This document shows positions 3,617 through 25,942 of a stretch of DNA of 61,794 nt, piece after piece (position 1 is the first letter of the stretch; the number at the start of each line of letters is the position of its first letter). This DNA is from Candidatus Daviesbacteria bacterium (GTDB lineage: Bacteria; Patescibacteriota; Microgenomatia; Daviesbacterales; UBA10151). Position numbers and translations under genes: made by a program. The stretch is taken from NCBI GenBank assembly GCA_021731695.1, contig JAKFWZ010000070.1, forward strand, positions 1-61,794, given 5' to 3'. Below the pieces are notes generated by a model, which was not told the origin of the DNA, did not search any database, and worked only from the letters and a program-made list of their open reading frames with translations.

Positions 3617-4411
3617 TCAACTGAATCTTTTAACAGCAGAGGCATGAGCTTTGTTTTCCAGTTCATCATCTAATGCCTTTAATTCAATCTCTTTACCATA
3701 TTTAACCTCTAAAGCTTTTTTAATTAACCAATCAGCTAATTCAGGATTCTTTGGCAAAAGTGAGCCGTGCATATAGCAGCCGATTGCATTCTTATATATA
3801 CAGCCTTCGGTTCTGTCCTCGCCATTATTTCCAAATCCTTTTATCAGTTTGCCTAAAGGTTTTGCACCCTGTCTGCCGGCCGGCAGGCCTTCATTAAGAA
3901 AAGTGCGGCCGGAATGGTTTTCGAAACCCACTAAAAGGTTATGAGTTATGGGAGCTGGGTTATGTGAATTATTTTTACTCATAACTCCTAACTCATCACT
4001 CATAACTTTGATTACAATATTCCCAATCATTCTCTCCTCCGATGCATTTGTGTATGCAGGGAAGATTCCAACACCTTTTAATTTTTCGCCTTCCTCAGGT
4101 GCGTAATAATCGCCTAATAGCTGATATCCGCCGCAGATTGATAAAAGCGGAACTCCTCTTTCAATTTCTTCTTTTAAAATAGGGCCTTTTTTAATTAAGT
4201 CTTTGGCTACTGCAATTTGGGATTCATCCTGCCCCCCGCCAAAGAAATACAAATCTGCATCACCTTTTTTAAACCCTGATCCAACTGAAATCTGTTTTAA
4301 TTCTACTTCAATTCCCCGCCACTCACTTCGTTTTTGCAGCGCAATAATATTCCCGGTGTCCCCGTAAATATTCATTAAATCGCCGTATAAATAGCCGATT
4401 GTTAGTTTCAT
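3617..4411 (-). CDS. gatD: GatD, CobQ-like glutamine amidotransferase (peptidoglycan amidation); carries two in-frame repeat insertions
   Basis: LYGDLMNIYGDTGN, ICGGYQLLG, GFENHSG, YMHGSLLPKNP; immediately downstream of murT. Confidence 0.92.
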   Translation of the reverse strand: MKLTIGYLYGDLMNIYGDTGNIIALQKRSEWRGIEVELKQISVGSGFKKGDADLYFFGGGQDESQIAVAKDLIKKGPILKEEIERGVPLLSICGGYQLLGDYYAPEEGEKLKGVGIFPAYTNASEERMIGNIVIKVMSDELGVMSKNNSHNPAPITHNLLVGFENHSGRTFLNEGLPAGRQGAKPLGKLIKGFGNNGEDRTEGCIYKNAIGCYMHGSLLPKNPELADWLIKKALEVKYGKEIELKALDDELENKAHASAVKRFS

Positions 4412-4423
4412 AGCTTGTTTTTC

Positions 4424-4506
4424 GTCATTGCGATATCGCGAAGCGAAGAAGCAATCTCAGTAAGCTCTGGGATTGCCGCGTCGGCCCAAGGTCTCCTCGC
4501 AATGAC
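4424..4506. repeat. REP-like inverted element (gtcattgcg...gcaatc / gattgc...cgcaatgac)
   Basis: Terminal gtcattgcg/cgcaatgac inverted repeats; same family as 23583, 23946 and 25830. Confidence 0.8.
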
Positions 4507-4508
4507 GC

Positions 4509-5792
4509 TCATTCCTTCCAGTATTCCTTCTTAACTCCTTTTTTAACTAAGATCTTTTGTAATTCTAAAAGCGCAGTGTACGTTGGTAATATAAATAGTC
4601 TGCCTTTTGTTGATTTAACAGCTTTATCGAATACCTGTTCAATATCAGATTCGATTGCCGGAACCGGAAAATCAGCATATTTAAGTCTTAGAGCCATATC
4701 AAGCGATCGTGTCCCTGACACGTAAAGCTGATAGCTGTGGGCCCCCGAAGGGGAAGATGGCTGATAGCTTTCAAATGGAATATCCCAAATCCATGAAACA
4801 TCTTTTCCGTCTGCAAAATTATCGTTTAAAGCAAGTATCAGTGAATCCTGCGGAGTTAAAGCGGGCATAACAGTTTGCATAACCTGAGTTGCTCCAACCG
4901 GATTTTTAATTAAGAAAATATAACCTTCCTTCCCGTTAAGTAAAAACTTTTCGCTTCTGCCGAAAGATGAACTTAAATCTTTAAGGCTCCCGGCCTGGGA
5001 TTCATTTAAGTTGCCTATCAGATACTTTGCAGCTAAGGCCGCGGTTGCATTACAGACATTGTAATCACCGGGAATTGATATAGAAACCGGAGTATTGAAT
5101 TTGTCTGCTATGAAATGAAAGTCCGAATCTGAAAATGTAGTTTTTAAATCGACTGCTTTAAAATCTGCTTTTCTTATGCCTGAAGACTTTTTCTCTCCCG
5201 GAATAGTGAGTCCTTCGACAGTAAAATTATAAGTTTCTTTACCTGTTTTCGCTAAAGAATTTAAACTCCCGTCATCAGTATTTATAAGTAGTTTAGTTTT
5301 ATCCGGAAGCTTTTTTAGAGTGTTTAACCACTTATTAACTATCGAATCAACTTCACCATAACGATCAAGCTGATCTCTGTAAACATTCAGCAGGATTATT
5401 AAATCGGGCTTTATTTTAGGGGCAAGAGTATTAAATGCAGCCTCATCAACCTCCCAAATTGCCACCTGTTCCTTAATTTTTCCGTTTAATGAGGCATGTT
5501 TAATTAGAACAGAAGCAATCCCCCTTTCTAAATTTGACCCCGTTTTATTTCTTATTACCTCGATTCCTTCTGATTTGTATAGTTGAGCGAGCATTCCCGA
5601 GGTAGTAGTTTTACCATTTGTACCTGTAATAATAATTTGTTTTGGAATTTGAGACGAGAGACCCTGAATCAGATTGGAATCAACTTTTAGCGCATAAAGA
5701 CCTGAAGCCGCGAATCCTCCGCCTAATTTAAGTGTTCGCGAAAGAAAGAATGTCAATTTGCCTAAAAAAATAGCTGCGATGGTTTTGAACAT
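4509..5792 (-). CDS. murT: MurT, Mur ligase-like subunit with DUF1727 C-terminal domain
   Basis: ITGTNGKTTT P-loop, EVDEA, RDQLDRYGE, LIKNPVG, ADGKDVSWIWD, PTYTALL. Confidence 0.93.
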   Translation of the reverse strand: MFKTIAAIFLGKLTFFLSRTLKLGGGFAASGLYALKVDSNLIQGLSSQIPKQIIITGTNGKTTTSGMLAQLYKSEGIEVIRNKTGSNLERGIASVLIKHASLNGKIKEQVAIWEVDEAAFNTLAPKIKPDLIILLNVYRDQLDRYGEVDSIVNKWLNTLKKLPDKTKLLINTDDGSLNSLAKTGKETYNFTVEGLTIPGEKKSSGIRKADFKAVDLKTTFSDSDFHFIADKFNTPVSISIPGDYNVCNATAALAAKYLIGNLNESQAGSLKDLSSSFGRSEKFLLNGKEGYIFLIKNPVGATQVMQTVMPALTPQDSLILALNDNFADGKDVSWIWDIPFESYQPSSPSGAHSYQLYVSGTRSLDMALRLKYADFPVPAIESDIEQVFDKAVKSTKGRLFILPTYTALLELQKILVKKGVKKEYWKE

Positions 5793-5826
5793 GCAGCATA
5801 ATTATAACCTCAATAGAGCTCAATTG

Positions 5827-6495
5827 TTAATTTAATATATCAATTCTAAACGTATGATTTACGTTCGCAAGAGTTGCCTTAAGATTTCTTGTTTCAGGCA
5901 AATCAGATGTAAGCTCAGTATTAACAAGCTCAAGTTCAGCAAGTTCAACGTCAAACGGATAGTTAGCTGCATATTTTTCAATATCGTTCATAAAGAAGTT
6001 AACATGAGTTCCCCAAGTTTTAGATGAGGCATATTTTTTGTTCATCGAAAAAGGCTCCGTATAACCTTTATCTACGTAATTTTCTTTAAGTCCTTTTGAG
6101 ATTGTAAAAATAGCTTCTCTCCATGATTTAAATTTCAAAACATTATCTCCGTAAACTCCCCATCCCCAACCGTTGTATGAAGTGTATAAAGGATCATGTC
6201 CTCCAGGAATAGCTTTACCGAAAGTAGATTCAGTACCGGCAATAGACGCAACAAGTCTCCAGTCAAGTTCGTACTGGTCTGCCGCATCAATAAAGTCTTG
6301 TGCGTTATTTTCTAAAGGTGAATTATGTTTGGCTAAATAATCCTTTAAGATAAGAACTCTTTTATCGACAGGTTTAGCCTCTATTGTCATCAACTGCTCA
6401 TCAGCAGCGTACACAGGTTTGACCCCTGTTATTAATGTAGGAAGGGCTAATTGAGAAAGGACTAAAAGACCCAAAAGTATTTTTTGAAGTTTCAT
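5827..6495 (-). CDS. Secreted glucosaminidase/lysozyme-like cell-wall hydrolase
   Basis: Signal peptide; DFIDAADQYELDWRLVASIAGTESTFGK and YNGWGWG motifs. Confidence 0.7.
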   Translation of the reverse strand: MKLQKILLGLLVLSQLALPTLITGVKPVYAADEQLMTIEAKPVDKRVLILKDYLAKHNSPLENNAQDFIDAADQYELDWRLVASIAGTESTFGKAIPGGHDPLYTSYNGWGWGVYGDNVLKFKSWREAIFTISKGLKENYVDKGYTEPFSMNKKYASSKTWGTHVNFFMNDIEKYAANYPFDVELAELELVNTELTSDLPETRNLKATLANVNHTFRIDILN

Positions 6496-6670
6496 AATTG
6501 TTTTTCTGTTAACAAGCTGTGTTTATGACTTTGCAAGCTTTGCTTATGAACAGAATCTCGAAGCTTTGGGTTAATCTCCAAGATTGAATTGAATAGTATA
6601 TACTATGAGCCTTAATTTGTCAAATAATTAGGGCGTAGCTAATCCTAGAAGATGGCTTTTAGGGCTAAAC

Positions 6671-7951
6671 TTATTCTTTCCTTGAAGGTTTGAGTTTAAG
6701 TATCCGTTCCCAGCTAATCTTAGGAAAATTAGGACTTTCAAGCAGTGACAAATGTATTCCCCTTGGTTCAGAGAATTTTGAGCTGACTTTTGGTCCTTCT
6801 AGAAGTCTCTGAAGTACACTTTCATACCACTTTCTAAAATCCTCAGCGTCATCCTCTGGAACTGTGTTAAATGCATCTTGAGCCATTGACATAAATTCTT
6901 CAGGATCAATATACTGTGGGTCTCTAAGTTGCACTGGGGTTAATGGGTTGGTAAATATTCTTCTAAGCTTCCTTTGCCGATCTTCCAGCCTTTCTATGAT
7001 GACATCGTTTGAGTACACTGCAGTTCTAATTGCGTCTTTTCCGTATCCTTCTTCTGCTACGATACCGAATCCGTTTTCTCTAATAACACTTGGTATTTTT
7101 CGCTTGTCATCAGCTTGATGATATAGTTGTGCTAGTTCGTCAACCTTCTTCTGTGAAAAACCTTTATCTCTAAGGTACCCTAATACACTTACTACTTCAT
7201 CCGGGCTAGGAAAAAACGAAAAATCGCGTTGATCACGGACCCAAAATTTATCTAGGACGAATAGATAGTAAACTCTACCTTCAAAATACACAGTGATGCC
7301 GCCTTTATCGTAGGGACCACCCTCATTGTGCTCTCTTATGTATTCTTTTTTATATGGATTTGGTTCAGTTATTGTTACGAATGGCAGCCTGAGTCTCTCG
7401 GCATGACCTTTAAAGAGTTGAGCAAGGTCTTCATCAAGGAAATCTTTGGTTTCTGTTGTTTTAGCAAAGAATCCCGCCAGTTCTAATCTTGAGGTGCCGG
7501 CACTACCGTAGGCTATAATTTCATTATAAGAGCCTCTTCCGGTTTGACGTAATATATCTTCAGGAGCTGGAACACTCATATTTTGCGCCTGGCGAATTAA
7601 TAAATTTCTATTGTATAGATGAGCACCAATGTCATGGTTTGATCCCATTAATAAATTAGCAGAAGGAACTCCAACTATAAGGCCAGCCTGACCCCAGGTT
7701 CCAGTGTGATTTTGGTCTATAAGGGACATTGATAGAGCAATTCTTCCAGATAATCCCTCCGGAGATTGTGATAAATTTATACTCTGATCGCCCTCTAGCG
7801 ACTTAGTTATTTCAGATCTTATTTGCTCTTGTGCTGCGAGTGTGTTCATATGCACTCTGGATGCTGGATTTATAGCATGTACTAGGTATCTGAAATTTTG
7901 AGTGTCATGCTGATCAGGATTAGTCGTAGAACCCCAATTTGTTTCTTTCAT
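6671..7951 (-). CDS. Hypothetical protein (orphan)
   Basis: Long ORF; TATAAT 7 nt upstream of ATG 7951. Confidence 0.7.
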   Translation of the reverse strand: MKETNWGSTTNPDQHDTQNFRYLVHAINPASRVHMNTLAAQEQIRSEITKSLEGDQSINLSQSPEGLSGRIALSMSLIDQNHTGTWGQAGLIVGVPSANLLMGSNHDIGAHLYNRNLLIRQAQNMSVPAPEDILRQTGRGSYNEIIAYGSAGTSRLELAGFFAKTTETKDFLDEDLAQLFKGHAERLRLPFVTITEPNPYKKEYIREHNEGGPYDKGGITVYFEGRVYYLFVLDKFWVRDQRDFSFFPSPDEVVSVLGYLRDKGFSQKKVDELAQLYHQADDKRKIPSVIRENGFGIVAEEGYGKDAIRTAVYSNDVIIERLEDRQRKLRRIFTNPLTPVQLRDPQYIDPEEFMSMAQDAFNTVPEDDAEDFRKWYESVLQRLLEGPKVSSKFSEPRGIHLSLLESPNFPKISWERILKLKPSRKE

Positions 7952-8011
7952 GATCAAGATTATAGCAAAAATTTACGTATAATACAAACTATAGGTTAAT
8001 TGCGAATTACG

Positions 8012-9016
8012 TTAAATTTTAAGAAGAGTTTGGGCTAGTACTTCAGGGTCATGTCTTAAAAGATGTTCTTTTGGTGAATATTTTGCCAGGTTGGCTTTTA
8101 TAATCTTGGCATTAGAAGCTATTTTTTTAATCTCAGCTTCATCTAGTTTAACCTGCATCTGTCCTTCTTTGGCATACAGCTTTTCGATATCTGAATCAAT
8201 TGAATCCGCATTCGCCACAATATAATCAATTCGATTACCGTCACCGAGATAAAACGAAAGAGCCTTTATAAAATCGGAAGCTTTAAAAGAATCAGTTTCA
8301 CCCCTCTTGGTCATTAAATTTAAAACAAAAATTAATTTAGCTTTTGAAGAATTGATAGCTTCGGCAACTCCGTTCACTAAAAGATGAGGCAATATAGAAG
8401 TATAAAGGTCTCCTGCAGAAAGAACAATTTTATCAGCTTGGGCAATTTCTTCTAAAGCTTTAGGATTTGCATCAGCCTGAGAATCAAAATAGATCCTTGA
8501 AATCTTATCTTTTGGTTTAAATTCCTCTCCTTCGCCACGAGTATCGATAAGAGTTTCGCCTTCAATAACGTTTCCGTCAACAGTTTTAGCGCATAGCTCC
8601 AAATCTGATAAAGACACCGGAACGACCTGACCCCTGACTCTAAATAATGCACGGGCTGCATCTAATCCTCTGTCGGCTCCCTGATATAAAAGTTGTAATT
8701 GGGACTGAATAAGATTTCCTAAAGCATGCCCCTTTAGAGGGCCGTCTACTTCTTTAAACCTTTCATTAAATAATCTTTGGGCGACCTGACGCTGGGCATC
8801 ATCTTCCATTAAAGCCAGTAAGCACTGTCTCGTATCTCCCGGAGGTAAAACTCCCATTTCAACCCTAAGTCTTCCTGAGCTTCCGCCAGAATCCCAGGTT
8901 CCGGTTATCGCAATAATAAGTTCAGGATTGTTTTCATCGACTAAACCACGAAGTAAAGAATAGTGTCCAGTCCCCCCGCCAAGTGTGACTATTTTCTGAT
9001 CAGTTTTGCTCATCAT
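8012..9016 (-). CDS. yvcK: YvcK/GlmR-family UDP-GlcNAc-binding protein (CofD-like)
   Basis: IVTLGGGTG, DSGGSSGRLR, PPGDTRQCL, GHALGNL, NLMTKRGET; start trimmed so it does not overlap tRNA-Leu. Confidence 0.9.
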   Translation of the reverse strand: MMSKTDQKIVTLGGGTGHYSLLRGLVDENNPELIIAITGTWDSGGSSGRLRVEMGVLPPGDTRQCLLALMEDDAQRQVAQRLFNERFKEVDGPLKGHALGNLIQSQLQLLYQGADRGLDAARALFRVRGQVVPVSLSDLELCAKTVDGNVIEGETLIDTRGEGEEFKPKDKISRIYFDSQADANPKALEEIAQADKIVLSAGDLYTSILPHLLVNGVAEAINSSKAKLIFVLNLMTKRGETDSFKASDFIKALSFYLGDGNRIDYIVANADSIDSDIEKLYAKEGQMQVKLDEAEIKKIASNAKIIKANLAKYSPKEHLLRHDPEVLAQTLLKI

Positions 9017-9090
9017 TCCCACTAAAGATACCACAATACCGCAAGAGTGGGAAATAAAAGATTTTTGGGGTAGAATTGGATAACTTCTTC

Positions 9091-9173
9091 GCCCCGGTGC
9101 TGGAATGGTAGACAGGCTAGCCTCAGAAGTTAGTGCCAGCAATGGCGTGGGAGTTCAAATCTCCCCCGGGGTA
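9091..9173 (+). tRNA. tRNA-Leu(CAG)
   Basis: gccccgg acceptor, ctagc-ctCAGaa-gttag, long variable arm, T-arm. Confidence 0.95.
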
Positions 9174-9215
9174 CAAGATTGACTTTCGGTAAAACTTTGG
9201 ATATGTTAACTTAGC

Positions 9216-9878
9216 ATGGGGATAAGCATTAGGTGGAGTGCTAAGTTAGCTTATGTAGTAGGTCTTATTGCCTCTGATGGGTGCTTATCAAATGATAGAA
9301 GACATATTGATTTTACCTCTAAGGATTTGGAACAAGTACAAACCTTCGCCAGATTATTAAAACTAAATAACAAAATTGGAACAAAAGGAATAAGCAGGAA
9401 AGATGGTCAACTTTACTATAGAATAGAGTTTGGAAATGTTAATTTCTATAGATTTCTATTAAAAATAGGATTAACTCCAAATAAATCGAAAACAATAGGT
9501 ATACTTTTAATTCCGGATAAATATTTTATTGATTTTTTAAGAGGCTCTTTTGACGGTGATGGACATTCTTACTCTTATTGGGATCCCAGATGGAAAAGTA
9601 GTTTTCAGCTATATATTGGATTTTCATCAGCCAGTCTTAAGCACATTGAGTGGTTACAGTCTAAAATTGAGAGTTTATATAACCTGAGGGGAAATGTTAA
9701 AAAAGGAAATCGCTCATTCCAGCTTGAGTTTGCAAAATACTCTTCGCTTCTTTTAATTGAAAAAATTTACTATAAAAAAGGTCTACCATTTCTTACAAGA
9801 AAGCACTCGAAAATTACAGCTGCATTAAGTATAATATCGACCAGTAAGCGGACGTGGCGGAATGGTATACGCGTATGA
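9216..9878 (+). CDS. Free-standing double-motif LAGLIDADG endonuclease
   Basis: AYVVGLIASDG and FLRGSFDGDG motifs; lies between two tRNA-Leu genes with its stop inside the second. Confidence 0.88.
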   Translation: MGISIRWSAKLAYVVGLIASDGCLSNDRRHIDFTSKDLEQVQTFARLLKLNNKIGTKGISRKDGQLYYRIEFGNVNFYRFLLKIGLTPNKSKTIGILLIPDKYFIDFLRGSFDGDGHSYSYWDPRWKSSFQLYIGFSSASLKHIEWLQSKIESLYNLRGNVKKGNRSFQLEFAKYSSLLLIEKIYYKKGLPFLTRKHSKITAALSIISTSKRTWRNGIRV

Positions 9879-9928
9879 TTGAGGTTCATATGCCGCAAGG
9901 CGTGGAGGTTCAAGTCCTCTCGTCCGCA
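9848..9928 (+). tRNA. tRNA-Leu(GAG)
   Basis: gcggacg/cgtccgc, tatga-ttGAGgt-tcata, variable arm gccgcaaggc. Confidence 0.95.
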
Positions 9929-10096
9929 CAGTTTAGGTTATAATACAAATGGCTTAGGGTTAAGATAGTAAAACACTGAAGTCCAGTGAACTTCTAACTT
10001 ACTGTTCAGTCGAAGTCGTTTAGACTTCGAAAACAGGGCACTTTAGATAGTTATACGCGAAGCGGAACTATCGCAAGGGCCCCGAGCGCAGCGAAG

Positions 10097-10169
10097 GGGC
10101 ACTTAGCTCAGTTGGTAGAGCGCTTCGTTTACACCGAAGATGTCAGGGGTTCGAGTCCCTTAGTGCCCA
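10097..10169 (+). tRNA. tRNA-Val(TAC)
   Basis: gggcact/agtgccc, cttcg-ttTACac-cgaag, T-arm. Confidence 0.96.
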
Positions 10170-10323
10170 CATTAAAAAGAGGCTATCTTTAGATAGACTT
10201 TTTTAAATTGGTTTTGGTAGGGAGCGAATTAAATCTTTGAAGACCGTAGGTCGCAAGCTCTGCTTATTTGGTTCGGCTTTTTCTTTCTAAGAAAATGGGT
10301 GTATTGTCCCTTAGTGCCCACAT
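10155..10323 (+). mobile_element. tRNA-3'-duplicating mini-element, copy 2 (18-nt repeat, 151-bp period including a ~26-nt nested insert)
   Basis: gtcccttagtgcccacat at 10155-10172 and 10306-10323; core aaatctttga[insert]tttggttcggc-hairpin-gtgtatt. Confidence 0.8.
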
Positions 10324-10347
10324 AAAAGAAAGTAAAAAAAGGTGATT

Positions 10348-10827
10348 TTATCGAAATCTTCTTAACTGCTGGAATTGCGCACTTAATGCTTCATTTGTTA
10401 AATATGCCCCATAGGTACCAGAAGGATTTAACGGTTGATTTCGTGATTCATCTCTAATCTTTGTCTGTTCATCTTGGGGCAAAGAACTAAATTGACTTTG
10501 TTGAAATCTGATTACTTCACCTAGGTTGGATAGTCTTGAAATATCAGGAACAGAAGCGCTTGGTTTTGTATATGTAAAAATAGTATGCCCCGCAGCGTCT
10601 GTCCACTGTCTTAGTACCCGGGTGTTTTCTGGGTTAATGTCAATTTGTCCGGCAGCATTCCGGTTAACAACAACACATGTTTCTTGAAGCTTGTAGCCAG
10701 CTTCTTTCTCACGCAGCGCCTTCATTTGTTCATCAAATTCTGCTTGACGAACAGCACGTCGAGCTTTTATTCCTGCCAATACCTCAGGAGGTAGGTTTTT
10801 TAATTCGTCTAAAGGGTCCCGATCCAT
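10348..10827 (-). CDS. Hypothetical protein (orphan)
   Basis: 159-aa ORF with upstream -10-like element. Confidence 0.7.
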   Translation of the reverse strand: MDRDPLDELKNLPPEVLAGIKARRAVRQAEFDEQMKALREKEAGYKLQETCVVVNRNAAGQIDINPENTRVLRQWTDAAGHTIFTYTKPSASVPDISRLSNLGEVIRFQQSQFSSLPQDEQTKIRDESRNQPLNPSGTYGAYLTNEALSAQFQQLRRFR

Positions 10828-10913
10828 GAGAGAATTATATCATATTATAGGTTATAAATGAATTTAATACCCATTGATTTGACTAAATTTTATTAATAAG
10901 ATTAATTGAAGTT

Positions 10914-11120
10914 ATGGACTCAATATTAAAAATTCTCGCACTTTATGGTTTGGTCTTTTTGCTTTTGACTTTAACTGCAAATTTTCTCTGGAGAGCTTTT
11001 CCTAAAATAAAAGGAGACATTTATCTACAAAATACCGGAATTGATTTCTATATTCCCTGTACATCTTCGGTAATTATTACAGTCATCATCACAATGCTCT
11101 TCTTCAATTACTTCAAGTAA
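10914..11120 (+). CDS. DUF2905-family small membrane protein
   Basis: Two TM helices with KGDIYLQNTGIDFYIPCTSSVII pattern. Confidence 0.65.
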   Translation: MDSILKILALYGLVFLLLTLTANFLWRAFPKIKGDIYLQNTGIDFYIPCTSSVIITVIITMLFFNYFK

Positions 11121-11178
11121 GCTTTTTGTCTAAAGAACTTATTTAAGTTTCGATAATTAAGCTGCTATTATAAAATGA

Positions 11179-11655
11179 GTGAATATTAAAAAATGCTCCA
11201 TGTGCGGTGAAGTAAAAAGTGTTTCGGAGTTTTACCAAAGAAGAAAACATCGTAGCGGAGAGTATTACGAAAAATGTAAAGATTGTTCTAAGACGCGGGG
11301 TAGAAATTATTACCACCAAAACCATGAGCGTCAACTACGACTGGCTTTACTCAGAAAAGATAGATATAAAGAGGAACGAAGAAAATGGCTTGAAAAAATA
11401 AAGGATAGACCTTGTATTGATTGTGGTGTAAAATACCCTCCATATATCATGGATTTTGATCATAAAGATGGTGTGGTCAAAATCGCAAGTATTTCCTGGT
11501 TGGCATTGCATAATACATCCAACCTTGAAGTGATTAAATTAGAGATAGCAAAGTGCGAATTGGTTTGTGCTAATTGTCATAGACAGAGAACGCACGACAG
11601 ATTAAAAAAAATTAAATCAGCCGCAGTAGCCAAGGTGGTCAAGGCAGGTGTTTGA
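11179..11655 (+). CDS. HNH endonuclease with N-terminal Zn finger, 3' end overlapping tRNA-Phe
   Basis: CSMC..CKDC, PCIDCG, DFDHKD, CELVCANCHRQRT. Confidence 0.85.
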   Translation: MNIKKCSMCGEVKSVSEFYQRRKHRSGEYYEKCKDCSKTRGRNYYHQNHERQLRLALLRKDRYKEERRKWLEKIKDRPCIDCGVKYPPYIMDFDHKDGVVKIASISWLALHNTSNLEVIKLEIAKCELVCANCHRQRTHDRLKKIKSAAVAKVVKAGV

Positions 11656-11692
11656 AGAACATCCTATTTCAGTTCGACTCTGGACTGCGGCA
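11620..11692 (+). tRNA. tRNA-Phe(GAA)
   Basis: gccgcag/ctgcggc, ggtgt-ttGAAga-acatc, ttcag-ttcgact-ctgga. Confidence 0.9.
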
Positions 11693-11732
11693 CACTTCAC
11701 TTCGTTCAGTGTAAACCCTGAAGAAGTGGTTT

Positions 11733-11981
11733 TTGTATATTTTGACAAGAATCGATGATAGTTTTTACACAGGAATTACATCGAATCTTGAAAGAAGGGT
11801 AAAAGAACATAACGAAGGTAAGAGTTTATCGACTAAAGGAAAGCTTCCGGTTAGTTTAGTTTATTGGGAAAGTTTTCCAGATAAATATAAAGCTGCTCGG
11901 TATTTTGCAAGAATAAAAGGATGGAGTAGGTTAAAGAAGCAGAATTTAATCAGTAAGTTTACATTGAGTCAGCTAAGCTGA
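11733..11981 (+). CDS. GIY-YIG nuclease (small, UPF0213-like); start uncertain
   Basis: YIL...FYTGITSNLERRVKEHN; preceded in frame by aag-tgg-ttt where ATG-TGG-TTT would be expected. Confidence 0.75.
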   Translation: MYILTRIDDSFYTGITSNLERRVKEHNEGKSLSTKGKLPVSLVYWESFPDKYKAARYFARIKGWSRLKKQNLISKFTLSQLS

Positions 11982-11987
11982 CGAAAT

Positions 11988-12059
11988 GCGGGAGTAACTC
12001 AGTGGTAGAGTGCCTCGTTGCCAACGAGGATGTCGAGGGTTCAAATCCCTTCTCCCGCT
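11988..12059 (+). tRNA. tRNA-Gly(GCC)
   Basis: gcgggag/ctcccgc, cctcg-ttGCCaa-cgagg, T-arm. Confidence 0.96.
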
Positions 12060-12184
12060 CTTAAAGAAAAAGTCGACCCTTGTGGTCGATCTTTTTGTTT
12101 AAAGGGAGGGTTGGGATTTTAATCAAATCTTTGATTTGGTTCAGCCTCGCGAAGCGAGTCGTGTATTATCCCTTCTCCCGCTCT
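12045..12184 (+). mobile_element. tRNA-3'-duplicating mini-element, copy 3 (17-nt repeat, 123-bp period)
   Basis: atcccttctcccgctct at 12045-12061 and 12168-12184; core tttaatcaaatctttgatttggttcagc-hairpin-gtgtatt. Confidence 0.8.
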
Positions 12185-12189
12185 CAACT

Positions 12190-12915
12190 TTAAGCAGTTC
12201 TGAAAAAAAATTTTCTGTTTTTCCAATAATCTCTGTCTACCTCTCCGGCCTTAAGATCTGCAAAATACCTCTCATCCATTCTTCCATCAGACCAATTTGC
12301 ATAGTCTCTTTTTAGGACTTTCACTTTTTCTCTTAAAATAGGATTATTACCAAATGGAGATTTGTAGCCGCGGTAAACCATTAACTCTTCTGCCACCGTC
12401 GCTCTATCATCTAAGAATGTGTGCCGACCATAAACTTCTGCATATCCTGAGCAATTAACTTTACTAAGTTGTCTAGAATTTAAATCCCAATAAGCATCTC
12501 CTAAATAAGGTAATAAAGGATTATTTAGTTCTTTCCATTGGGCAATTCCTCTGTCAGATAAAGCACCCGGTTGTTGATCAGCTCTGTGCAATATTTCGTG
12601 ATGAACTATGCGAGGCCTTACCATATCAAAATATATTGGCCCATTACTAAATGCCAGTCCTGCTACCGAAATCCATCGTTCTCCGATTCTGTGTTCTATA
12701 TCATTTGCTATGAGTAACTGAGAAATATTGCAATCACGGATAAACTCAGGCGGGTAGACTTTTAATGCATCTCTGAATTCAGATACATCTTCAGCAGCAT
12801 ACTCTATAAGATCTTTTAGAGGTTCAAGCTTAACAGTCTTGGGTACTTCTACTAACCTTGGAGAAACTCTTACAGTCAATCCATACTCCTTTTTTAATCC
12901 TCTTAAATCTTTCAA
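12190..12915 (-). CDS. Putative zinc metallopeptidase (HExxH); N-terminus possibly cut by an in-frame TAA
   Basis: HHEILHRAD and YAEVYG..FLDDRATVAE resemble the putative zinc-binding metallopeptidase family; upstream in-frame ATG at 12993 followed by TAA at codon 6. Confidence 0.6.
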   Translation of the reverse strand: MKDLRGLKKEYGLTVRVSPRLVEVPKTVKLEPLKDLIEYAAEDVSEFRDALKVYPPEFIRDCNISQLLIANDIEHRIGERWISVAGLAFSNGPIYFDMVRPRIVHHEILHRADQQPGALSDRGIAQWKELNNPLLPYLGDAYWDLNSRQLSKVNCSGYAEVYGRHTFLDDRATVAEELMVYRGYKSPFGNNPILREKVKVLKRDYANWSDGRMDERYFADLKAGEVDRDYWKNRKFFFRTA

Positions 12916-13130
12916 CAGCTGAAAAAAACTTCTTCTTTGATAGAGTTGATAGTCATTTCCACACTCTTGAAGTATTTATCTGACCTCATTCATATGATTA
13001 TAGTAGCAAATTAAAAGATTAAATTCAAACTATGGGGTAAAAAATCCCCCTTTAATTTACTCTTTGTACAAATTACTTTGCCTAGGCTTGAGCAAATCTC
13101 AGGGGAGATTAAATTTTCCTATTCCATTGC

Positions 13131-13388
13131 TTATGCAGCAATAGGCTCTGCAGGTTCTGCAGCTGGTGCTTCCACTCCTCCATCTTGAGGTGGTGTCTGC
13201 ATTGGGTCAGGAGTTGTTGCTCCCGGCATTGCAGGTTCTCCTGCTGGTGGCATTTGTGGTGCCTGTCCAGGTTCTGTTGTGGGTGCATCTGTTCCTGTAG
13301 GAGCTGGTGCTCCCATTGGATCTGCAGCTGGTGTCTCTCCTGGCATTCCTGCAGGTGCAGTTGGGTTTGTTGTATTTGTATTGTCCAT
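13131..13388 (-). CDS. Small Pro/Ala/Gly-rich disordered protein
   Basis: ATG with upstream aaggcggtga RBS; low-complexity PAP/PAG motifs. Confidence 0.7.
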   Translation of the reverse strand: MDNTNTTNPTAPAGMPGETPAADPMGAPAPTGTDAPTTEPGQAPQMPPAGEPAMPGATTPDPMQTPPQDGGVEAPAAEPAEPIAA

Positions 13389-13530
13389 TTAAATATCACC
13401 GCCTTTCTTTAAGTTCCTCTTCAGTTTAATCGGTGAATTAAAAATATGTCAAGGAGTTGCGTATGAAAAGTGTAATTCTTTTATAACATTAGTACGGGCT
13501 TTTAAGGCTAATTTAAGGTAGAATGAATTT

Positions 13531-14487
13531 ATGTTTGTAGATGAAGCAGAAGTTGAATTAATAGCAGGACACGGCGGACCCGGTAAAGTTTCTTTTCATA
13601 AACCTCCCGTTCGAGGTCCTGACGGAGGTAATGGTGGAAAAGGCGCGAATTTAATCTTTCGCTCGACTGATTCAATTAGTACTTTAGGATATTTCTTAAA
13701 GCATAAAAAAGTCAGTGCAGATAATGGCGCTTCCGGTGAATCGAATAGAAAATCAGGAAAAGACGGAATGGATCTTTATCTTGATGTACCAGTCTCAACT
13801 CAGGTTACAGATTTAGAATCAGGCGAAGTCTTCGTGCTTCCAAAGCCGGGAATGGAAGTTGTTCTTTGCAAGGGTGGAAAAGGTGGTAGAGGCAATTACG
13901 AATTCCGTTCTCCCCGTAATACAACTCCAGAATATGCTCAACCCGGACTTTCAGGTCAGACGAGAAAAGTTAAAATTCAGATTAAGTTAATCGCAGATAT
14001 TGGTTTAATCGGGCTTCCAAATTCCGGAAAGAGCTCCTTACTTAATGAATTAACTAATGCAAATGTAAAAGTCGGAGATTACGCTTTTACTACTTTAGAG
14101 CCAAATTTAGGCATTGTGGCAAGAGACCTGCCTGCCGGCAGGCAGGTTATTGCCGATATTCCGGGAATTATCGAAGGGGCAAATACAGGTAAGGGCTTAG
14201 GAATTAAATTTTTAAAACATATAGAGAAGGTTAAAATTTTGCTTCACTGTATCCCCTGCGATTCACTTGATCCTCTAGGCGATTATCAAATAATTAAGAA
14301 AGAAATGACTGCTTTTAATGCTCACCTCGGTCGCAAAAAAGAAATTATTTTATTAACTAAATCAGATTTAACTGATGAAGCCGGTATTGAAACTTTAACA
14401 AATGAATTGTCGAGTTTAGGTAAACAAATTATTCCGGTTTCTGTGTATAATTTTGATAGTATTGAAAACCTTAAAAAATTAGTATGA
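13531..14487 (+). CDS. obgE: GTPase ObgE/CgtA with in-frame palindrome insertion
   Basis: FVDEA..AGHGGPG, GPDGGNGGKG, ADIGLIGLPNSGKSSLL, YAFTTLEPNLG, DIPG, TKSD. Confidence 0.95.
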   Translation: MFVDEAEVELIAGHGGPGKVSFHKPPVRGPDGGNGGKGANLIFRSTDSISTLGYFLKHKKVSADNGASGESNRKSGKDGMDLYLDVPVSTQVTDLESGEVFVLPKPGMEVVLCKGGKGGRGNYEFRSPRNTTPEYAQPGLSGQTRKVKIQIKLIADIGLIGLPNSGKSSLLNELTNANVKVGDYAFTTLEPNLGIVARDLPAGRQVIADIPGIIEGANTGKGLGIKFLKHIEKVKILLHCIPCDSLDPLGDYQIIKKEMTAFNAHLGRKKEIILLTKSDLTDEAGIETLTNELSSLGKQIIPVSVYNFDSIENLKKLV

Positions 14488-22506: not shown

Positions 22507-22610
22507 AGCGCAGAATTATACAGTAAAAAAGAGCCTCAGGCGATTCCCAAGGCTCTTTCATTTTGAAAACCATGCCTGCCGGCAGGTAAACTAAAAAATC
22601 ACTCTGTTCC

Positions 22611-23582: not shown

Positions 23583-23639
23583 GTCATTACGAGGAACGAC
23601 CTGCCTGCCGGCAGGCAGGAGTGACGTAGTAATCTTGAT
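23583..23639. repeat. REP-like element containing the 20-bp palindrome cctgcctgccggcaggcagg
   Basis: Inverted copy of 25886-25942 (3 mismatches in 57). Confidence 0.85.
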
Positions 23640-23933
23640 TTAAACAATATCCGGATATAAGTCTTTAACTTTAGGGTTAAATTTCAAAATTATCTCTTCC
23701 TTTCTTTTTCTAGAGTAGTTTTTAATCTGTTTTTCTCTTTCAATTGCATTTTCTGGATCTTCAAAAGCTTCAAAATACACTAAATCATGAACTTTAAACT
23801 TTTTAGTAAAACTCTCATCCTCATTTTGTTTATGTTGCCAGACTCTTTTTATTAAGTTACTTGTTATCCCAGTATAAACAACAGTTCTGCTGTGATTGCT
23901 CAAAATGTAAACATAATACTGTTTACTGGACAT
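23640..23933 (-). CDS. GIY-YIG nuclease flanked by REP-like repeats
   Basis: YYVYIL...VVYTGITSNLIKRVWQHK...AIEREKQIK. Confidence 0.92.
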   Translation of the reverse strand: MSSKQYYVYILSNHSRTVVYTGITSNLIKRVWQHKQNEDESFTKKFKVHDLVYFEAFEDPENAIEREKQIKNYSRKRKEEIILKFNPKVKDLYPDIV

Positions 23934-23945
23934 TTATTAATTGTA

Positions 23946-23997
23946 ATCAAGATTGCGACGCTTCGAAAGTCGTTTAGACTTTCTCACTCGCAATGAC
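23946..23997. repeat. REP-like half element with nested aagtcgtttagactt hairpin
   Basis: atcaagattgc...ctcgcaatgac; the nested hairpin also occurs at ~10013. Confidence 0.75.
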
Positions 23998-25829: not shown

Positions 25830-25942
25830 GTCATTCAGAGCCACGTTTAAGTAAACTAAACGTGGCGTAGGAATCCTGATTTTTCATCAAGATTGCCACG
25901 TCACTCCTGCCTGCCGGCAGGCAGGTCGTTCCTCGCAATGAC
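25830..25942. repeat. Full REP-like element with two nested palindromes
   Basis: gtcattc...gaatc / gattgc...cgcaatgac; nested ccacgttt..aaacgtgg and cctgcctgccggcaggcagg (25906-25925). Confidence 0.85.

Follow-up and report, generated by a model that had tools for sequence, protein, structure and literature searches.

Introduction

In-frame insertion of palindromic repeats into housekeeping genes is known in bacteria, both for repetitive extragenic palindromic (REP) sequences and for Rickettsia palindromic elements, RPEs (Di Nocera et al. 2013, PMC3733652). RPEs are approximately 100–150 bp long; REPs measure 20–40 bp, carry a GTAG or CGTC tag and are lineage-specific in sequence (PMC3733652). 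Here we describe P20 (CCTGCCTGCCGGCAGGCAGG), a perfectly palindromic 20-mer without a loop, which is found within the obg and gatD genes and between genes in a 61,794-nt stretch of a Candidatus Daviesbacteria genome (contig JAKFWZ010000070.1, positions 1 to 61,794), the whole of which is referred to below as the window. P20 is very probably a mobile insertion element which is tolerated in frame, and it belongs, as a very small variant, with the palindromic repeats already known to insert in frame. Like RPEs and the intragenic GTAG- or CGTC-tagged REPs (PMC3733652), it is dispersed, occurs in frame in housekeeping genes where it encodes a tolerated peptide, and recurs in the same gene region. 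Unlike them, it is only 20 nt in length, has neither tag nor loop, is letter-identical across phyla and is itself nested inside such repeats. With RPEs it shares the in-frame property, but neither their size nor their taxon.

Also closely related to the present case are the Ssn proteins, which are hairpin-specific single-strand DNA nucleases (Chenal et al. 2025, PMC11893778), together with their NTS/SRM repeats (SRM, Ssn-related motif). The repeats which house P20 between genes resemble these in consisting of a CGTCAT tag and a hairpin and in flanking a 97-aa GIY-YIG gene in an NTS-ssn-NTS layout. P20 itself differs from an SRM: it has neither the CGTCAT tag nor the asymmetric flanks on which cutting by SsnA depends (PMC11893778). 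SRM/NTS repeats consist of a 5′ CGTCAT tag, a hairpin, a conserved 3′ C and a non-palindromic flank of fixed orientation; P20 is symmetric and consists of the 20-mer alone. Moreover, the nucleases linked to P20 belong to a small GIY-YIG subgroup (“type B”, see below) different from Ssn. Neither P20 nor Patescibacteria, in-frame insertions or tRNA-lodged cassettes are mentioned by Chenal et al. (2025; PMC11893778).

P20 also departs from the REP/REPIN sequences associated with a REP-associated tyrosine transposase (RAYT) in a REPtron, since the genome has no Y1 RAYT gene and P20 has no GTAG tag. Miniature inverted-repeat transposable elements (MITEs) measure 70–300 bp and have terminal inverted repeats matching those of an insertion sequence (IS) together with a fixed target-site duplication, while P20 is 20 nt long, shows no duplication in seven pairs of filled and empty sites and has variable junctions in genes. 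The small dispersed repeats (SDRs) of heterocystous cyanobacteria, reportedly described by Elhai and colleagues in Genome Research in 2008, are said to be imperfectly palindromic mobile repeats of 21–27 nt, with nested insertions and with filled and empty orthologous sites. P20 is like them in being very small, palindromic, nested and present at sites with filled and empty forms; SDRs, in contrast, belong to a single lineage and are mostly intergenic. We know of no transposase for SDRs, nor of any report of cross-phylum identity or of a single reading frame for them. The mobile GC clusters and double-hairpin elements of fungal mitochondria are GC-rich palindromes which spread in AT-rich genomes, some of them in coding or RNA genes, but they are organellar, longer than P20 and species-specific in sequence. 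Finally, HIP1 of cyanobacteria (GCGATCGC) is likewise a palindrome which lies inside genes without disrupting them (PMC5861425); it differs from P20 in being 8 nt long and hyper-abundant, and in arising in place without a change in length. HIP1-type sequences occur about once per gene and leave gene length unchanged, while P20 has 15–34 copies in 1.45 Mb and orthologues without it are 6–7 residues shorter.

In the literature searched, neither the 20-mer nor the peptide LPAGRQ was found, and cross-phylum identity, nesting in hairpin loops and tRNA-lodged GIY-YIG cassettes were not described for P20. Relative to that literature, a tag-less element of 20 nt whose letters are the same in about ten phyla is new.

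P20 in the window and in the genome

The genome analysed (G000) comprises 1.45 Mb in 102 contigs, of which the window is contig C3, and has a GC content of 37.7%. A search of a protein collection identified its closest named Obg homologues in Candidatus Daviesbacteria. The window includes four P20 matches with at most three mismatches, compared to 0.01 expected from window shuffles. In the genome as a whole, P20 occurs 15 times without a mismatch, 22 times with at most one and 34 times with at most three, and it is by far the commonest of the loop-less palindromes (21 cores versus 4 for the next family). The flanks are variable: the base at position −1 is A in 41% of the copies and there is no GTCAT.

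An earlier reading of the window made from sequence only (the sequence-only reading) had pointed to a perfect palindrome in obg and a copy with two mismatches in gatD. Both were located, and the translations across the inserts, ...GIVARDLPAGRQVIADIPG for Obg and ...NEGLPAGRQGAKPLG for GatD, are as it had given them. Two of the intergenic copies which it had listed are exact, while the third, described as partial, is a decayed copy (Table 1). Its suggestion that these copies are nested in REP-like elements holds for the nesting, but the hosts can be specified further as Ssn-related motifs (PMC11893778). An Rfam scan of the window returned tRNAs only, with no match at the repeats.

Coding copies are in-frame insertions

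Orthologues were collected from eight relatives, four of them of the same genus, using chimeric queries built from pieces of ~160 residues around each copy, and 13 P20-bearing genes were compared with up to eight orthologues each in protein and codon alignments. Ten or eleven of them exceed every orthologue by seven codons (21 nt): SucD, GatD (the window copy at 3868), triose-phosphate isomerase (TIM), a D-Ala-D-Ala carboxypeptidase (DacA-like), PyrG, a pfkB-type kinase, CopA, an alpha/beta hydrolase, a PurP-like ATP-grasp enzyme and probably RluD, in which about six to seven codons are added. In both DnaG and AtpD, the addition is of six codons (20 minus 2 nt). GatA (C18:8755) is longer by 13 codons, contributed jointly by P20 and a (GAA)8 run, encoding poly-Glu, immediately after it. 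The inserts are placed in variable regions between conserved blocks. The insertion in frame proposed by the sequence-only reading is borne out by this comparison: P20-free orthologues are 6–7 residues shorter, and loops of equal length were not found in them.

The coding copies correspond to the 20-nt unit with an adjustment at the junction, of +1 nt in most cases or of −2 nt, which keeps the frame. The extra base copies the flank in five genes (A in the DacA-like gene, CopA and TIM, G in GatD, C in RluD) and extends the palindrome (C..G) in three others (SucD, pfkB and PurP), while two genes have lost 2 nt at the junction. A fixed 1-nt target duplication was considered and rejected in view of these heterogeneous junctions, which can be explained by selection for frame acting on an essentially 20-nt event with occasional imprecise joins.

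The variation in loop length among Obg relatives, some of whose “mid” loops (LKGRK) can be read either way, would also be compatible with a motif formed in situ from existing loops, whether through point mutations or through gene conversion, as in the case of HIP1, or with an artefact of assembly or library construction. However, the gaps are clean, spanning 6–7 codons in 13 genes against up to eight orthologues each, and filled and empty non-coding sites differ by exactly 20 nt (see below). An artefact would not respect the reading frame as the copies do; moreover, many independent studies have yielded P20, in isolates as well as in metagenome-assembled genomes (MAGs), and orthologous sites hold copies in a decayed state. 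An origin without insertion is, in our opinion, extremely improbable.

The GATase_3 protein of the window was identified as GatD because a MurT ligase gene adjoins it. Its insert of seven codons is missing from all seven orthologues (7/7), including that of the same-genus genome G005, and the two mismatches of this P20 copy are both synonymous (CCT to CCG and AGG to AGA). The sequence-only reading had taken the copy to be an older insertion; it does predate the perfect copies, yet its absence from the sister genome G005 shows that it is not ancient. The majority of P20 copies are likewise missing from G005 and the Obg loop has been hit at least twice (see below); P20 insertion has been both repeated and recent.

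GatD also includes, at residues ~137–160, a variable segment of ~21 residues (VMSDELGVMSKNNSHNPAPITHN) which is unrelated to P20. It is present in the window genome, G005, G002 and G006 and absent in G001, G011, G012 and G021, and does not track the genus. At the position at which AtpD of this genome carries P20, atpD of G005 has a different insert, NPSTRSGQG (L192). Larger inserts were also observed. In a SerB-SerA fusion open reading frame (ORF), at C10:29164-29290, two whole Ssn-related repeats in convergent orientation, one of which carries P20 in its loop, form an in-frame insert of 44 residues (...VIPSEHRERRNPDSIKIATLLPAGRQVARND...) in the phosphoserine phosphatase domain, which is missing from the G005 orthologue. 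In the PurP-like ORF (C2:11839), P20 is read AWPAGRQ and the segment ...NVIPAEAGIKEE... resembles another translated CGTCAT-type repeat.

A single reading frame predominates

There is no stop codon in any of the P20 frames. All 16 copies located in homologue-supported ORFs of this genome nevertheless read xLPAGRQx or point variants, and 17 of the 20 copies fetched from the relatives G012, G030 and G052 are in the same frame. The coding copies are thus nearly all in the LPAGRQ frame. The exceptions read PACRQAG and occur in N-terminal leader-like regions, namely pilin-like leaders in G030 and one site in this genome (C1:86485). These copies (L215, L218 and L222 of G030 and C1:86485) immediately precede either a pilin-type segment, (G)LTLMEVLVAMG, or a hydrophobic one.

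As regards decoding, tRNA-Arg(CCG) is absent and tRNA-Arg(UCG) present, while CGG and TGC are used at 2.7 and 2.9 per 1000 codons, respectively. Given this tRNA and this codon usage, availability of tRNAs or codons provides only a weak explanation for the frame bias and was not retained. The bias may reflect selection against the two Cys-containing readings.

Repeated insertion into the Obg loop

The loop which carries P20 in Obg has the family baseline LGVLNGKVIADIPG and reads LGIVARDLPAGRQVIADIPG in the window protein. The closest relative, P0003 (84% identity, 312 aa), has the loop LGVSGKKIIADIPG (VSGKK) without P20. Aligned with the window gene, its DNA shows an 18-nt gap exactly at P20, and the window Obg is six residues longer. 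In a maximum-likelihood tree of 92 Obg proteins, calculated with the loop masked, the window protein is sister to P0003 (100/99) within a short-loop clade. Other P20-like loops, NLPVGRQ in G005 and NMSERRQ in P0009, are found in a different clade from the window protein. The window protein is sister to the short-loop P0003, and the decayed copies, P0008 and P0009, group elsewhere, which requires a minimum of two changes on the tree: P20 has entered the Obg loop at least twice.

An AlphaFold (AF2) model of Obg, with a mean predicted local distance difference test (pLDDT) score of 81, places the insert in a loop (residues 197–204) between strands 193–196 and 205–209, with lower confidence locally at the insert. 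This predicted location, the β2–β3 hairpin loop of the G domain, agrees with the proposal of the sequence-only reading that copies survive in surface loops. For GatD, the model has a pLDDT below 50 over residues 94–213, too low for the insert to be placed.

The same Obg loop carries other inserts. In the obg genes of G006 (L006) and G008 (L016), a CGTCAT-type repeat is read PRHPESSEGS or PPRHSERSEGS, and in P0027 and P0039 the loop includes a palindromic insert of the PLAGG or PLTGG type. Many of the “mid” loops of 8–9 residues (LKGRK, LGPKTK) resemble decay products of such inserts. As different palindromic inserts occur across Obg lineages, the β2–β3 loop is a tolerant site which has been hit repeatedly, by three different palindromes.

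Non-coding copies reside in the loops of Ssn-related repeats and tRNAs

Each of the two exact intergenic copies of the window occupies the precise tip of a hairpin repeat, GTCATTGCGAG...GCAATCTTGAT (Table 1). The host repeats have the general form (C)GTCATTGCGAG, variable hairpin core, CGCAATCTTGAT, and frequently form pairs with repeats of another type, GTCATTCAGAGC...GGAATCCTGAT. A loose pattern for this family has 146 matches genome-wide. The repeats match the NTS/SRM motif CGTCATTCCCGCGMAVGCGGGAATCYRG (PMC11893778) and have the attributes of SRM/NTS sequences: a (C)GTCAT tag followed by a hairpin and AATC(Y), presence in many copies, and a position flanking a small GIY-YIG gene. Inverted SRM copies flank such genes at window positions 23640–23933, at C34:7799 and at C79:228; P20 occupies the loop of the repeat downstream of the first of these.

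Table 1. Position of P20 copies, repeats and genes in the window.
Feature	Position	Strand	Remarks
P20, exact, in obg	14127..14146		flanking a..t gives a 22-nt palindrome (14126-14147); encodes (D)LPAGRQ(V)
P20 with 2 synonymous mismatches, in gatD	3868..3887		encodes GLPAGRQ
P20, exact	23600..23619		apical loop of Ssn-related hairpin repeat
P20, exact	25906..25925		apical loop of Ssn-related motif
P20, decayed, intergenic	22571..22590		16/20 matches
obg (GTPase Obg)	13531..14487	+	insert between YAFTT (G2) and DIPG (G3); Pfam GTP1_OBG 2.9e-41 plus MMR_HSR1
gatD (CobQ-type glutamine amidotransferase, MurT partner)	3617..4411	-	Pfam GATase_3 2e-37
murT	4509..5792		gatD neighbour; matches MurT_C plus Mur_ligase_M
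Ssn-related motif GTCATTACGAGGAACGA-P20-AGTGACGTAGTAATCTTGAT	23583..23639	+	abuts GIY-YIG stop codon
GIY-YIG gene, 97 aa, single-domain, Ssn-like type A	23640..23933	-	inverted hairpin repeats on both sides
Upstream Ssn-related motif, different core hairpin GAGAAAGTCTAAACGACTTTCGA	23946..23997	-	
Ssn-related motif carrying P20	25886..25942	-	convergent pair with second-type motif 25830-25880
Second-type Ssn-related motif GTCATTCAGAGC...GGAATCCTGAT	25830..25880	+	
Small GIY-YIG gene, type B, tRNA-lodged	11733..11981	+	wedged between intact tRNA-Phe (11620-11693) and tRNA-Gly (11988-12060); no P20 adjoining

Filled and empty forms of the repeats differ by exactly 20 nt in three repeat types (GAACGA/AGTGAC, GAGCGA/AGCG and TGAAAA/CCGG, where the slash indicates the P20 site). 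The empty form of the motif which abuts the window type A gene is found at C44:6042 (GAGGAACGA/AGTGACG). Together with comparisons between tRNA fragments and intact tRNAs, seven filled and empty non-coding pairs were obtained, all with an additional 20 nt and none with a target duplication. The tRNA comparisons in which P20 adds precisely 20 nt concern L091, L160, L172 and G020. P20 is found in the D, anticodon and variable loops of tRNA sequences, and the loop differs from one GIY-YIG cassette (see below) to another. In two viral contigs (L301 and L324) and two genomes (L069 and L139), it lies in the variable loop or the D-loop of a tRNA or tRNA-like sequence; in L139, the tRNA 3′ of a GIY-YIG gene is interrupted by P20 and is no longer called by ARAGORN.

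Distribution across genomes, phyla and viruses

Among 61 relatives, P20 is present in 25 and absent from 36, with 0–22 copies per genome, and its occurrence is scattered across many families of the class. A scan of GTDB (one genome per species, 596 Gb) retrieved at least 120 stretches with exact P20, compared to ~0.5 expected by chance on arithmetic grounds. The matches listed cover about ten phyla. They include Patescibacteria, Omnitrophota, Planctomycetota, Gamma- and Deltaproteobacteria, Bdellovibrionota, Thermodesulfovibrionales/Thermodesulfovibrio (Nitrospirota), Thermodesulfobacteriota and Chloroflexota, as well as Bacteroidota with the cultured genera Winogradskyella, Flagellimonas, Longitalea and Flavivirga. 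In IMG/VR, 35 viral-contig stretches carry exact P20. In the copies from these two collections, P20 again resides in SRM loops, here in other phyla, and in tRNA loops.

Perfect conservation of the sequence across phyla, together with the 15 exact copies among 34 in this genome and the position of some intergenic copies at gene ends, might suggest that P20 is kept by selection as a useful signal in DNA or RNA (for example a site bound by a protein, an uptake sequence, a terminator or a recombination site). The copy number is, however, low and patchy (36 of the 61 relatives have none), and known uptake sequences are present in hundreds to thousands of copies. In Patescibacteria, most copies are inside unrelated genes and at non-homologous places; they also decay by mutation. 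A signal function appears very improbable. P20 is a putatively selfish element, as the sequence-only reading had suggested.

GIY-YIG genes and the proposed mobilisation of P20

The genome includes 16 GIY-YIG matches. Fourteen are single-domain ORFs of ~82–123 aa; the larger two are on C8 (481 aa) and C55 (~207 aa). The small genes form two subgroups, the Ssn-like type A, flanked by SRMs, and type B, of ~85 aa, located at tRNA genes. The product of the window type A ORF (23640–23933) matches the Pfam GIY-YIG domain over residues 5–78 (E 2.9e-15), with the UPF0213 proteins 1zg2 and 1ywl as best PDB matches, and its predicted 97 aa would be consistent with the single-domain, ~94-aa proteins of the Ssn family (cd10448). 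NCBIfam provided neither a match nor a name for the small GIY-YIG proteins.

Of 124 foreign exact copies of P20, four are located 20–41 nt upstream of a type B gene. The arrangement is that of a cassette: a 5′ tRNA fragment with P20 in its D or anticodon loop is followed by the GIY-YIG gene and then by an intact tRNA (Lys, as in the WWE3 cassette L091, Gly or Leu). The same layout occurs at tRNA-His in the relative G020, and the viral contig L331 shows the same P20-GIY-YIG layout. In G028 (C15) and G016 (C14), the cassette copy is the sole P20 of the genome. For the adjacencies in the relatives G028, G016 and G020, ~0.02 would be expected by chance. In an unbiased clustering of ORFs within 300 nt of P20, GIY-YIG was the top recurrent family, and the control window yielded none. 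The P20-linked nucleases are weakly clustered on their tree (12 of 500 shuffles were as low). Moreover, in an unbiased sample of type B genes, every cassette with this layout carried a GC-rich palindrome in the loop of the tRNA fragment (L228, L229, L230, L250 and C20:6609). The link is further supported by the parallel behaviour, in this genome, of a second palindrome (P16, see below), and by the hairpin-specific nuclease activity proven for Ssn proteins (PMC11893778).

We propose that P20 is a non-autonomous, perfectly palindromic mobile DNA element of 20 nt. A single-strand GIY-YIG nuclease specific for hairpins, acting in trans and in combination with host ligation or repair, would move it. 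P20 would constitute the junction hairpin of the tRNA-lodged cassette (5′ tRNA fragment, P20, GIY-YIG gene, intact tRNA), and this cassette would travel between phyla and seed solo copies of P20. Selection would then remove out-of-frame and Cys-frame insertions, such that the LPAGRQ-frame copies survive. Taken as a whole, with a mobile P20, tolerance in frame and GIY-YIG mobilisation via the tRNA-lodged cassette, this is the explanation which we favour and consider reasonably probable. Its enzymatic component is more tentative: that a GIY-YIG protein is the mobilising enzyme is a reasonable lead and not a result.

A number of observations weigh against this proposal. Only ~3–5% of P20 copies adjoin a GIY-YIG gene, and in three high-copy relatives, G012, G030 and G052, no such gene occurs within 500 nt of any of the 20 copies. 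The genome studied here has 34 copies and no P20-bearing type B cassette, while G028 and G016 carry the cassette and no solo copies. Over the 61 relatives, P20 copy number and the number of small GIY-YIG genes are uncorrelated (rho 0.17, p 0.18), and no small GIY-YIG gene was detected in G009 and G035, which have five P20 copies each. P20 lacks the CGTCAT tag required by SsnA. GIY-YIG nucleases cut DNA, and to our knowledge no joining activity is known for them. Targeting of hairpin loops within genes was examined by folding the empty sites and was rejected: 6 of 16 coding targets are in loops, compared to 37% of controls from the same genes, and a pure loop-targeting model fails for the coding copies. 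Finally, the near-absolute frame bias, which is unaccounted for by tRNA or codon availability, counts against the proposal.

Several of these features would also be expected if P20 were mobile but its link with GIY-YIG genes incidental, with pseudo-tRNA fragments and the loops of Ssn repeats simply providing harmless sites, a “safe harbour”. The mobiliser would in that case be an unrecognised enzyme, a phage function, or host repair which captures free P20 duplexes or hairpins at breaks. The majority of copies without a nearby nuclease gene, the lack of correlation with GIY-YIG gene counts, and the existence both of high-copy genomes without a cassette and of cassette genomes without solo copies are all in keeping with this. 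So are the presence of P20 at different tRNA loops in different cassettes and the mixed junctions in genes (+1 flank copy, +1 palindrome extension, −2), which resemble imprecise end joining. On the other hand, all sampled cassettes of the tRNA fragment-gene-tRNA type carry a GC-rich palindrome, which looks integral to the cassette, and the sole P20 copy of G028 and of G016 is the cassette copy. Nor is a Y1 transposase present in the genome, in which PF01797 is unmatched; RAYT/IS200 proteins, considered as candidate mobilisers, were rejected on this basis. An incidental association appears unlikely to us.

A more ambitious form of the GIY-YIG proposal, in which P20 and the ~85-aa tRNA-lodged nuclease would be a two-part selfish system spreading across phyla and phages, with the nuclease, specific for structure or sequence and acting on single strands, both excising and re-inserting P20, is in our view doubtful. 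If true, no mobile DNA smaller than this 20-nt hairpin would have been described to date, and the flexible LPAGRQ would be written into the loops of essential proteins, later decaying to lineage-specific sequence. More generally, P20 provides a testable case of very small selfish DNA which crosses phyla, probably via phages or small tRNA-lodged cassettes, and shows how protein loops gain new sequence. It is a trap for the annotation and alignment of Patescibacteria genomes. For the mini GIY-YIG (UPF0213-like) proteins, which form a large family, it offers a candidate substrate.

A second palindrome

In such a two-part system, if it exists, other palindromes would represent sister systems with their own nucleases. 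One example is P16 (TCCGCCAGCTGGCGGA), which is read PPAGG. It has eight copies with at most two mismatches in this genome (among them C1:71056, C20:17294, C34:486 and C68:3312). At C20:6562, upstream of the type B GIY-YIG gene at C20:6609, it occupies the D-loop of a 5′ fragment of tRNA-Asn. Copies within genes, which include PGK and a TrpRS-like gene, always read (N/D)PPAGG, and the proteins are three or four residues longer than their orthologues, with unclear boundaries.

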